Shown here: positions 17,306 through 20,152 of the stretch, piece by piece | How the letters are laid out: each line of letters begins with the position of its first letter | How positions within the stretch are numbered: the stretch's first letter is position 1 | Assembly (NCBI GenBank): GCA_963825135.1 | Contig: CAWGRW010000009.1 | Coordinates: 2,091,301-2,155,300 of the forward strand | From: an uncultured bacterium | GTDB taxonomy: Bacteria > Desulfobacterota_D > UBA1144 > Nemesobacterales > UBA2774 | Direction: 5' to 3' | Length of the DNA: 64,000 nt | Notes under the pieces: model-generated | The model's input: only the letters and a program-made list of their open reading frames with translations | Databases searched by the model: none | What the model was told of the DNA's origin: nothing | Made by a program: the position numbers and the translations under genes

Positions 17306-20152
17306 ATGAAGAAAAATTATAGGAACCTGAATCAGGCGCTTCTTACAGCGCTCATGACTTATTCCGGGAGAATTTGTTACAAGTCCAAGCGGGAGGGAGA
17401 GTTCCGGGATATATCGTTCGGGGATTTTAAGAAGCTGGTCCTCCGGTTGTCGGCATATCTTCTCGGCAAGGGGTTTGAACCCGGGTCGAGAGTAATAATT
17501 TTTTCGGAAAATTCGCCGGAGTGGATGGCTGTCTGTATAGCGTCCCTGTTTTCAGGCGGGATTGTCATTCCCGTAGCCGCGAATTCCAAGCCCGAACTAT
17601 TGAACCGCATACTAAAAGATTCATCGGCGTCGCTAGTGTTCGTGCAAAACGTTTTTCAGGCGGCCGGTGTCGGGAATATGTGTGAGAACAAACCTTCTAT
17701 AATAGTTATGGAGGATATCGACGGAAGCGGGGATCGGACGATGCACCTCACTTCTATTGGTAAAGGCTCAATTACGGAGGAGGATGTCAAAGCGGTAAAG
17801 ATACGCGCCGAGAGCGTAAACCCGGAATCTACTGCCCTAATTTTCTACACCGCCAAAGAGACAGGGGTTCCGAGGGGCGTCGTGTTCTCACACGGCAGGA
17901 TGCTCGATACACTCACCCACGTTTCGGAATGGTTTGGTCTGGACGAATTCGACCTGGGGTTCACATCTACGAACTGGAGCAATTTCCAGAGTTTCGTGAT
18001 CGCCCTCGAATACATATATTCAGGCATTGGGAATGCGCTCTCCCAGAGCATAGATACCGTATTCGAGGACCTTCAGCAGACGAGTCCCACTGTCACCATG
18101 ACAAGCCCATTTGCCCTGGAGTATATTCACAGACGAATTATGCACGAGCTTGACGAGATGCCTGAGTCGAGGCGGAAAATTTTCCAGTGGGCGCTTGCAC
18201 TTGGAAGGCAATACCGCTCCGAGGAGTCCACGGCGTCAAAGGAGCTGCGTGAGCAGTATACCCGCGCAGATATGGCATTTTTCGGGAGGATGAGGGCGAT
18301 ACTGGGAGGGAGGCTCCTGCGGATTTATTGCGCGGGTGCTCATTTGTCGAGGGAGCTCGCCGGTTTCGCCGAGGCCATAGGACTGTTGCCCCTGAACGTT
18401 TATTCAATCGTTGAGGCTGGCGGCTTTCCTGCCTTGAGCCGCCCTTACGCCCGCAGGATGGGTTCCTGCGGTCAGGTCGCTCCGGGTTTCCAGATAAGAA
18501 TCTCGGACGAAGGCGAAGTCCTGGTGCGAGGAGAAACGGTTTCCGCCAGTTACTGGAACTCCCAGGAGCAATATGAGAATCTCTTTGACAGGGACGGGTG
18601 GTTCCGTACCGGAGATTTGGGGAAGTTCGACCAGGACGGGTATCTGTTCCTGACCGGTCATAAGGAGTCAATTTTCCTCCTGTCAAACGGCCATAAAATC
18701 GTACCGTCCAAAATTGAGAACTATATCGCGGACAACCCCTTCATAACGCAAGCCCTCGTATTCGGCGAAGGTAAATCCTATGTGTCTGCTTTGATCGTTC
18801 CGAATTTTCAGGTAATCGGGGAATATCTAACCGCTTATGAATCTTCACAACAAAACGGCGACATGCCTATCGATACGTTTAATCCGGCGGTTAAGGCGCT
18901 CATAGATAAAACGGTCTCGGATGTAAATAATCAGCTGAACGTGTGGGAAAAGATACAGGCGTATACGATGATCGATAAGCCATTCAGCGGGTATGGTTCG
19001 GATTCGGCGGAGCTCGAAAGGAGCGACCGGGCCGAAGTTCTAAAGAAATACTCGCTCTATATCAACGCTATGTATCCCGACACCCTCAAGATCGATAACG
19101 ACGATATAAAGCTCGTGCAGCTCGATCCCGACCAGCTTCGCGACCTTCTCGAAAAGCAGGACATTCTGACCGCATGGATGGAAGAAGCCGGCATCGGGTT
19201 TTTGCTGGATCTCGCGCGTTCCAAAGGCATTGACGCACTATCCATGGTGAACATTTGCGAGACCGCGACCAGCATCGCGCAGATGCAGAGCGAGGAAAAA
19301 CCTATATCCACCGCTCTTATCGTTGGCGATCCGACGCACATATCCAGCGTGCTGCCCGACGGGGAGATACAATTTCACCGTTTCGATCATATAAGGCGTA
19401 TGCAGCAGGTGGTTATCGCCCTGGCGAAAATAGTCGACGGTGTGGTGCTGGGTTACGGGATAGATAAATACGGGTATCTGAGGCGTGTCCATAAGCTGGA
19501 AATAGATGCGGATGGTCCGTCTAACTTTCTCCTGGGTCCGCAGTTCAGGAAGCATGCCGCGATATCGAGCAAGTGCGATGCGATTGTATTCTATGTGCCG
19601 GTAGGCGGCAGGCAGGTGCGGGTATTTTCGGACGGGCAGATGGTCGCGAGGTATTCGAACGGGAACTGGATGGCCGAGAACTTTCCGCACATCGACGAGA
19701 CCGTCGAAAGGCTTGCTCTCAAAAAGAGCTATGACGTCGAACTCCTGAGGCGAATTTTTCGTTGTGCTTTCCTGATGTCGGAGAGGAACCTGGGAGCTAT
19801 TTTCGTTGTCGGTGAGTCTGATAAAATATTGAAGAAGTCGGACCCTCCTGAAATAAGCCCTTACGCGACGATAACCAATGCTTATATAGGCAAATTGACG
19901 GACAGCGAGATAATAAATTTTGCGAAACAGGACGGGGCGACTATAATAGATTCGGCCGAAGGCGCGTTTCGGGGCTGTATGGTACTTCTACGTCCCAGCG
20001 CCGATACCCAGGCGGAGATAGGGATAGGCAAGGGCTCGAGACACTCGAGCGCGTCAAAAATGAGCGCAGAGGCGGGGTGTCTTGCAATCACTGTATCCCA
20101 GGACGGTCCGATCACCGTGTACGACAGCGGGGAGCGTATTATGACCATATAG
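17306..20152 (+). CDS. ANL-superfamily (acyl-CoA synthetase-like) adenylating domain fused to two tandem DisA_N/diadenylate-cyclase-like domains
   Basis: N-terminal ~590 aa are COG1022-like ([25 protein letters not shown]...IVPSKIE). The C-terminus has two DAC-pattern segments, ending ...[34 protein letters not shown]. Starts 18 nt after the sensor gene. Confidence 0.7.
   Translation: [948 protein letters not shown]

Follow-up and report, generated by a model that had tools for sequence, protein, structure and literature searches.

A single open reading frame (ORF) in the genome of an uncultured bacterium (GTDB lineage Desulfobacterota_D; UBA1144; Nemesobacterales; UBA2774) encodes a 948-residue protein in which a domain of the adenylate-forming (ANL), acyl-coenzyme A (CoA) synthetase-like type is joined to two consecutive lobes of the diadenylate cyclase (DAC) fold. 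The gene lies in a 64,000-nucleotide (nt) stretch of contig CAWGRW010000009.1 (assembly GCA_963825135.1, positions 2,091,301 to 2,155,300, forward strand), which we call the window and whose first nucleotide is position 1. From the N to the C terminus the protein is made up of the ANL domain, a three-helix linker, a degenerate DAC lobe that we have named DAC′, and a second DAC lobe, DAC2. As far as its sequence allows us to judge, it is most likely a diadenylate cyclase regulated through an uncharacterized input domain of an unusual kind and carrying a built-in pseudo-cyclase.

The ORF, at 17306 to 20152 on the plus strand, is intact and begins with ATG, exactly as an initial annotation made from the sequence alone had described it. 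The motifs quoted in that annotation are also all exact: a 25-residue ANL motif; ISTALIVGD, VDGVVLGYG, and two stretches of 11 residues in the first C-terminal segment (segment 1, our DAC′); and QDGATIID with three stretches of 10 residues in the second (segment 2, our DAC2). The database entry for the protein (P0001) has 932 residues, beginning at M17 (position 17354), and is 16 residues shorter. We favor the ATG at 17306 because homologues keep the NLNQALL N terminus that it would encode, sharing the sequence MxxxxxNLNQALL.

The annotation had read the protein as an ANL domain with two lobes of the DAC fold behind it, and this arrangement was upheld by Pfam, hhalign, AlphaFold2 with Foldseek, and profile searches taken together. 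Pfam by itself recognized the ANL domain (AMP-binding, PF00501, residues 21 to 417, E = 2.5e-39, 135.6 bits against a threshold of 29.9) and segment 2 (DAC, PF02457, residues 824 to 943, E = 2.2e-13, 50.3 bits against a cutoff of 27, spanning profile positions 7 to 118 of 119) but found nothing in segment 1 at E ≤ 10. The small C-terminal ANL subdomain matched AMP-binding_C_3 (PF23562, residues 456 to 591, E = 1e-10). In the full-length AlphaFold2 model (predicted local distance difference test [pLDDT] score, 85.4; predicted TM-score [pTM], 0.80), DAC′ and DAC2 have secondary-structure elements in identical order, each lobe preceded by a long helix. All 50 matches listed in a Foldseek search with the full-length model were ANL enzymes, and this search was uninformative about the C-terminal arrangement.

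Relatives of the full-length protein fell into more than 115 clusters at 90% identity. They are about 945 residues long, contain the same three Pfam domains, and extend down to 42% identity. Their database names are "AMP-binding protein," "long-chain acyl-CoA synthetase," "diadenylate cyclase, partial," or "hypothetical," none of them functional. We recovered 80 loci, taking one genome per species, and all came from metagenome-assembled genomes (MAGs). The hosts include Chloroflexota (Anaerolineae, Caldilineaceae, and Ardenticatenaceae), Candidatus Dadabacteria, Thermodesulfobacteriota, and Acidobacteriota/Thermoanaerobaculia, with a few bins labeled Spirochaetia or Ignavibacteriales. Several genomes hold two or three paralogues; three Chloroflexota MAGs, for example, each account for three of our loci (L031, L060, and L076; L028, L033, and L078; L017, L035, and L037), and at locus L021 two ANL-DAC′-DAC genes stand in tandem (9986 to 12871 and 12822 to 15848) with an apparent overlap of about 50 nt. 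Four ANL-only relatives (P0117 to P0120) that we considered as an outgroup proved to be family members with a truncation or a frameshift and were set aside. The annotation knew of no characterized protein that joins an ANL domain to DAC domains. In support of this, no member of the family has a functional name, and we found no paper in the searchable literature on a DAC joined to an ANL or acyl-CoA synthetase domain. The architecture may nevertheless be cataloged, though not characterized, in the 2023 census by Galperin (J Bacteriol 205:e0002323).

To assess conservation, we aligned 107 full-length members, which share 42 to 80% identity. Conservation is strongly asymmetric, being highest over the last 350 residues and lowest in the ANL domain.

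DAC2 is probably a catalytic diadenylate cyclase domain of the DacZ-like type. Its best match in NCBIfam was DacZ (NF041371, E = 5.7e-11, 42.3 bits, profile positions 145 to 264), and its best phmmer match to a DAC of solved structure scored 18.5 bits (E = 0.012). Residues N828, G830, G836, G877-A878, G910, R912-H913-S914-S915-A916, K918, S931, D933-G934-P935, Y939, and G942 were invariant in all 107 members, and A831, D876, and T879 were each kept in 106. The annotation had pointed out that only segment 2 keeps the DGA motif and that its RHR triad reads RHS, and both observations extend to the whole family, in which DAC′ has D-G-[LVI] at the DGA position. In the DacZ-like DACs that our searches recovered, the triad reads RHT, RHN, or RHR; since its third position varies there, we do not regard the RHS of DAC2 as a strong sign of inactivity. 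The segment S931-Q-D933 aligns with Ser-Glu-Glu of Bacillus subtilis CdaA, with D933 falling on the second Glu, a segment that supplies the metal ligand in the CdaA structures. Mycobacterial DisA has VSHS where CdaA has VSEE. Given this variation among DacZ-like DACs and mycobacterial DisA, neither the third RHR residue nor the Ser-Glu-Glu segment can be considered universal.

We identify segment 1 as a DAC domain of the DacZ type that has been duplicated and has degenerated. Three independent tests agree on this identification, one comparing profiles, one comparing predicted structure, and one searching a protein library. When the family alignments of segment 1 (residues 660 to 800) and segment 2 (residues 815 to 948) were compared with hhalign, they matched over 113 collinear columns (P = 1.2e-4), pairing STALIVGD with NLGAIFVLGD, VDG with QDGA, FRxHAA with ARHSSAA, and GGRQVRVF with DGPITVY. 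An AlphaFold2 model of residues 596 to 815 (pLDDT, 82; pTM, 0.77) was then searched against the Protein Data Bank (PDB) with Foldseek. All 50 matches listed were DAC domains, 49 in all reached E ≤ 1e-3, and the best target-normalized TM-score to a PDB DAC was 0.65. The matches included DisA (9y4s, 7y0d, 4yxm, and 3c1y), CdaA/DacA (6gyw, 8ogk, and 4rv7), and CdaM (8ofj and 7dfx). Finally, a segment 1 profile run against 1.84 billion representative proteins matched 88 of them at E ≤ 1e-3, among which it aligned to the genuine Pfam DAC domains of P0195, P0202, and P0206 (70 to 77 bits; library-wide E values of 1.6e-4 to 9e-4), collinearly over the whole domain. P0202 is itself DacZ-like (117 bits to NF041371), and the motifs GTAFIIGD, LDG, G.RH..AAI, and SGGKIRVFKDG are common to the DAC′ profile and the DacZ-like DACs. 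No Pfam-A model covers DAC′, and a 30-sequence profile of the segment 1 family returned only noise from all PDB sequences (NOP5 and MgtE, for example, at E > 0.3).

DAC′ has lost the Ala of the DGA motif, with D-G-[LVI] in its place, as well as the Ser and the acidic metal ligand, with P765 and G767/G768 in theirs, and the spacing of the Arg and His is shifted to F-R-x-H. Across the 107 members, on the other hand, S668-T669, G674, D711-G712, G744, F747-R748-x-H750-A751, P765, G768, Q770, R772, F774, and G777 are strongly conserved, several of them within a C-terminal motif, P765-x-G-G768-x-Q-V-R-V-F. DAC′ thus resembles an inactive duplicate in which the face that once formed the active site remains under constraint.

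The linker, DAC′, and DAC form an evolutionary module. The three-helix linker travels with DAC′-DAC in stand-alone proteins and in other fusions, and in every such protein that we examined with Pfam, DAC′ directly precedes a DAC that Pfam recognizes. The module occurs alone in proteins of about 345 to 365 residues (L067, L068, L071, P0176, and P0147). Elsewhere it follows PAS-GAF-PAS (L062, L063, and P0125; 787 residues), an anti-sigma-type zinc finger (zf-HC2) plus a Lon_C/ChlI-like domain (P0133, P0138, and P0144, about 670 to 795 residues), or a MarR-type winged helix (P0181 and P0191; 405 residues). None of the relatives sharing the module has a functional name. Since classical input domains fill the N-terminal end of those other fusions, the ANL domain stands where an input would.

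The ANL domain itself (residues 1 to 595) is complete in fold. Its top Foldseek matches were luciferase, 4CL, and CAR (E = 4e-32), and its nearest NCBIfam family was that of the FadD11 long-chain acyl-CoA ligases, to which it scored 178 bits against a cutoff of 950. In ANL enzymes, motifs A5 and A7 touch the adenine and ribose, and both are kept here: Y366 is present in 107/107 members and E370 in 98/107, followed by AGGFP, and D437 of A7 (GW..TGD437) is present in 106/107. Other motifs have decayed. The 11-residue A3 P-loop at 181 to 191 aligns with YTSGSTGKPKG of a nonribosomal peptide synthetase A domain and varies widely among the members, with 3-residue deletions in some; the canonical pattern [ST][STG]G[ST][ST]GxP[KR]G was found in none of the 107, the 10 corresponding residues of the window protein included. 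The A8 Arg is His452 here, as it is in 38 of the 107. At the position of the A10 Lys, residue 572, the window protein has Arg; a Lys stands in the aligned column in 36/107 members and anywhere within 566 to 574 in at most 40/107, in a loop of low pLDDT and less certain alignment. In FadD13, mutation of the A10 Lys (K487A) abolishes about 96% of activity, and a P-loop mutation (K172A) raises the Km for ATP 10-fold (PMC2793005). The ANL model was closest to thioester-state structures (5bsr, 4g37, 5mss, and 7thq; root mean square deviation of 4.6 to 6 Å, compared with about 11 Å for adenylation-state structures), although this state is a property of a prediction and as such weak evidence. From its motifs, the ANL domain likely binds an adenosine-containing or acyl ligand, and in most members of the family efficient adenylation is not to be expected of it.

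The AAA+ gene directly upstream of the ANL-DAC′-DAC gene is found in the same place in seven loci including the window (the others being L001, L002, L004, L005, L007, and L061), with gaps of 19 to 58 nt. In the window, the 19-nt gap between the two genes contains no terminator-like site, and a hairpin between the ANL-DAC′-DAC gene and the convergent gene downstream is likely a bidirectional terminator closing the two-gene unit. The partner contains a Sigma54_activat domain (PF00158, E = 2.5e-41) in which GADSTA replaces GAFTGA and the Walker B DE reads KD (VYIKD; EE in L007 and L061). It has no helix-turn-helix (HTH), and the chain stops within the AAA lid. A canonical relative, with GAFTGA, Walker B DE, and HTH all present, lies beside the PAS-GAF-DAC′-DAC gene of L062. 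These losses mark the partner as a pseudo enhancer-binding protein and not a normal sigma-54 activator.

In Chloroflexota and Acidobacteriota the closest same-strand neighbors of the gene encode signaling proteins, namely Ser/Thr kinases, STAND/MalT-LuxR regulators, response regulator-SpoIIE phosphatases, hybrid kinases, and class III cyclases. In six Chloroflexota loci a DHH/DHHA1 phosphoesterase gene lies near it on the same strand, in five of them as the immediate neighbor and in the sixth (L037) at a distance of two genes. The DHH superfamily includes the cyclic di-AMP (c-di-AMP) phosphodiesterases GdpP and DhhP, and these neighbors are candidate cognate phosphodiesterases. Such a pairing of cyclase and phosphodiesterase fits a real messenger-making enzyme. 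The features of the window and the DHH/DHHA1 genes are collected in Table 1.

Table 1. Features of the ANL-DAC′-DAC gene and its surroundings (window coordinates, except for the last row, which gives coordinates within each locus)
Feature	Position	Strand	Evidence
ANL domain (adenylate-forming/acyl-CoA-synthetase-like), large N-subdomain and small C-subdomain	17306..19090 (residues 1-595)	+	Pfam, NCBIfam, Foldseek
Three-helix linker, LLEKxxILDAWxxDAGIxFLxxLA	19091..19282 (residues 596-659)	+	AlphaFold2 helices 608-628, 631-640, and 644-658; conservation
DAC′ pseudo-cyclase lobe	19283..19690 (residues ~660-795)	+	hhalign, Foldseek, library-wide profile
Inter-lobe helices and DAC2 (DAC2 proper, residues ~811-948)	19691..20149 (residues 796-948); Pfam DAC, nt 19775-20134	+	Pfam, NCBIfam
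PAS-GAF-PAS-GAF plus sigma-54-type AAA+ partner gene, 19 nt upstream of the ANL-DAC′-DAC gene	14615..17287	+	Pfam PF00158
Sigma-70-like promoter match ahead of the AAA+ partner gene, consensus match only	14537..14565	+	10/12 positions; site count in region not above shuffles
GC-rich hairpin, 10-bp stem, candidate bidirectional terminator	20586..20610		Between convergent ANL-DAC′-DAC and DUF2092 genes
Divergent DHH/DHHA1 genes near ANL-DAC′-DAC genes	L014, 12853-13977; L028, 1552-2760; L031, 8685-9908; L037, 11175-12305; L054, 1824-3140; L065, 894-2108	Same strand	Pfam

The window is syntenic with five Dadabacteria-like loci (L001, L002, L004, L005, and L069). The two-gene unit is flanked by genes for a DUF6607 protein (12299 to 13618, minus strand, E = 7e-75) and a predicted periplasmic DUF2092 protein (20634 to 21506, minus strand, E = 4e-55), both syntenic in the Dadabacteria-like relatives, and a LOG/SLOG-family gene lies at 11387 to 12157. 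In L069 (Candidatus Dadabacteria RIFCSPHIGHO2_12_FULL_53_21; L069 positions 9915 to 10510), about 6.07 kb equivalent to window positions 13573 to 19641 is missing, which takes out orf13633, the AAA+ gene, and codons 1 to 779 of the ANL-DAC′-DAC gene. What is left is a 160-residue ORF over DAC2, 90% identical, which may be all that a deletion left behind, a DAC reduced to a minimal stand-alone form, or an artifact of assembly.

On balance, we favor the view that ANL-DAC′-DAC is a sensor-regulated, one-component second-messenger synthase of the DacZ type and not a fatty-acid enzyme. We favor a signaling cyclase because the DAC2 positions are invariant, two catalytic motifs of the ANL domain are noncanonical, and the C-terminal module is swapped among sensors. 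The product of DAC2, made from two molecules of ATP, would be c-di-AMP or a cyclic dinucleotide close to it. The ANL domain, standing in the place of a sensor, would bind a ligand, for which AMP, a molecule resembling an acyl-adenylate, a carboxylic acid such as a fatty acid, and CoA are candidates. Its ligand state would be relayed to DAC2 by the linker and DAC′ and would act there as a switch. Because DAC catalysis needs two domains arranged head to head, DAC′ probably occupies or completes the active-site face of DAC2; it might mask that face until a signal arrives, or it might supply the second half of the head-to-head site. In the clade of the window, where the pseudo-AAA+ partner would be co-transcribed, that protein probably works together with the cyclase and could act as a second input or a scaffold.

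Several observations weigh against this view. The 42.3 bits of DAC2 fall far below the DacZ equivalog cutoff of 430, and DisA loses its activity when RHR is mutated, whereas DAC2 reads RHS. The P-loop of the ANL domain is degenerate and not destroyed, many members reading T-x-G-x-T-G/D-x-P-K/R-G, and A5, A7, and K453 are conserved, so the domain may have kept a residual or altered adenylation activity. Of about 75 loci, just 6 show the DHH linkage, with Pfam DHH scores at or just below the curated cutoff. We saw no c-di-AMP riboswitch (Rfam) or known receptor gene nearby; the sole Rfam match in the window was a tRNA gene (54445 to 54518, plus strand).

A more elaborate form of the idea, which we consider doubtful, would have DAC′ and DAC pair head to head within one chain as an asymmetric cyclase, with the dead lobe forming one half of the site. 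It would perhaps produce an asymmetric or linear dinucleotide and be gated by an ANL pseudoenzyme reading AMP, acyl-AMP, or fatty acid, helped in Dadabacteria by a pseudo-AAA+ protein retargeted from sigma-54. Such an asymmetric site is conceivable because recently described DACs make cUA through an asymmetric active site. If true, this would connect cyclic-dinucleotide signaling directly to the lipid or energy status of the cell.

The retained ANL residues bear on a different explanation, which corresponds to the annotation's idea of acyl/adenylate chemistry linked to signaling, that the protein is a bifunctional enzyme in which a working, atypical ANL acyl-AMP/acyl-CoA ligase has its cycle coupled, mechanically or metabolically, to c-di-AMP synthesis. 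The complete ANL fold, scoring above the Pfam threshold, the defined thioester-type conformation of its model, the retention of Y366/E370, D437, and K453, and a basic residue (K/R) at the "PKG" position of the P-loop in 86/107 members are all compatible with such an enzyme. We nevertheless regard it as possible and rather unlikely, given that the P-loop is canonical in no member and shortened by deletions in some, that the A10 Lys is gone in about two thirds of the members, including the window protein, that conservation is lowest in the ANL domain, and that unrelated sensor domains precede the same C-terminal module elsewhere. Similar considerations make less likely a reading left open by the initial annotation, with acyl/adenylate chemistry as the active part and the DAC folds perhaps only sensors, since the ANL motifs have decayed, the DAC2 positions are kept, and the module also stands behind sensors.

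It might also be argued that neither DAC lobe is catalytic and that DAC′-DAC is an ATP- or c-di-AMP-binding sensor or scaffold, a pseudoenzyme adaptor for, e.g., the pseudo-AAA+ protein. RHS replaces RHR in every member, the scores of DAC2 (50 bits to Pfam DAC, 18.5 bits to the best solved DAC) show it to be divergent, and the locus is rich in pseudoenzymes, with DAC′ dead and the ANL and AAA+ domains degenerate. Unlike in DAC′, however, the other catalytic positions of DAC2 (DGA, R-H, Ser, and the acidic ligand) are kept over 42 to 80% identity; the DacZ-like DACs vary at the third RHR position as well; and DHH phosphoesterase genes accompany the gene in six loci, all of which leaves this explanation improbable. 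Very much less probable still is a generator of an antiphage defense signal, similar to DAC-containing DS-2/CBASS variants or Panoptoo. DAC domains do act in defense islands, making c-di-AMP or cUA (bioRxiv 10.64898/2026.08.10.743927), and the AAA+ neighbor matches RtcR/PspF-type AAA models in PADLOC. Those matches are confined to the AAA+ core (profile positions of about 125 to 412) and do not extend to the CARF or HTH parts, and PADLOC matched neither the ANL-DAC protein nor its non-AAA+ neighbors. The gene also sits in a syntenic chromosomal locus across Dadabacteria-like genomes with no effector-like partner, and elsewhere it has housekeeping signaling genes as neighbors and several paralogues per genome.

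If ANL-DAC′-DAC is indeed a sensor-regulated cyclase, a metabolic enzyme fold has likely been repurposed as a ligand sensor, and a cyclase that carries its own dead duplicate would provide a natural test of head-to-head gating. We know of no characterized precedent for the ANL fold as a ligand sensor and of no characterized intramolecular pair of a dead and a live DAC. The family offers an entry to second-messenger signaling in uncultured Chloroflexota, Dadabacteria, and Acidobacteriota, and the several paralogues per genome suggest many inputs. The automatic names "long-chain acyl-CoA synthetase" and "AMP-binding protein" probably mislead the metabolic reconstruction of such MAGs.

Five classes of DAC are usually listed, DisA, CdaA, CdaS, CdaM, and CdaZ/DacZ (PMC10167629), and the Galperin census, as cited in PMC12901056, distinguishes 22 DAC families by their N-terminal domains. 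How these five classes synthesize c-di-AMP is understood, the signals that control them much less so. Like DacZ/CdaZ, which is archaeal and found in some bacteria (NF041371), the ANL-DAC′-DAC protein has a C-terminal DAC after a regulatory α/β domain. The pyruvate-kinase-C-like N-terminal domain of DacZ (profile positions 1 to 144) is unmatched here, however, and DAC2 is preceded instead by DAC′, the three-helix linker, and the 595-residue ANL domain. In CdaS, in which YojJ N-terminal helices precede the DAC, and in CdaA and DisA, activity is set by head-to-head pairing of DAC domains and gated by N-terminal elements. DAC2 resembles CdaA and DisA in keeping DGA and the R-H of RHR, and its Ser-x-acidic segment aligns with the Ser-Glu-Glu of CdaA. 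It differs from CdaS, CdaA, and DisA in having Ser as the third RHR residue and a second, dead DAC on the same chain, and the protein has neither the transmembrane helices of CdaA and CdaM nor the linker and helix-hairpin-helix domain of DisA.

At the other end of the protein, the ANL domain shares with the FAA1/FadD11 long-chain acyl-CoA synthetases its fold, its two subdomains, A5, A7, and the C-terminal AMP-binding_C_3. It is set apart from them by a P-loop that is never canonical, an A10 Lys that is mostly lost, an A8 Arg that is often His, and the fused signaling module. The closest analogy for the lobe pair is with degenerate GGDEF domains or the C1/C2 halves of class III adenylyl cyclases, in which a dead catalytic duplicate with a conserved former active-site face stands beside a live one. 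The DAC fold and its chemistry differ from those of GGDEF proteins and class III cyclases, but by analogy with the inactive copies in such paired cyclases, DAC′ would be expected to regulate or complete the DAC2 site.

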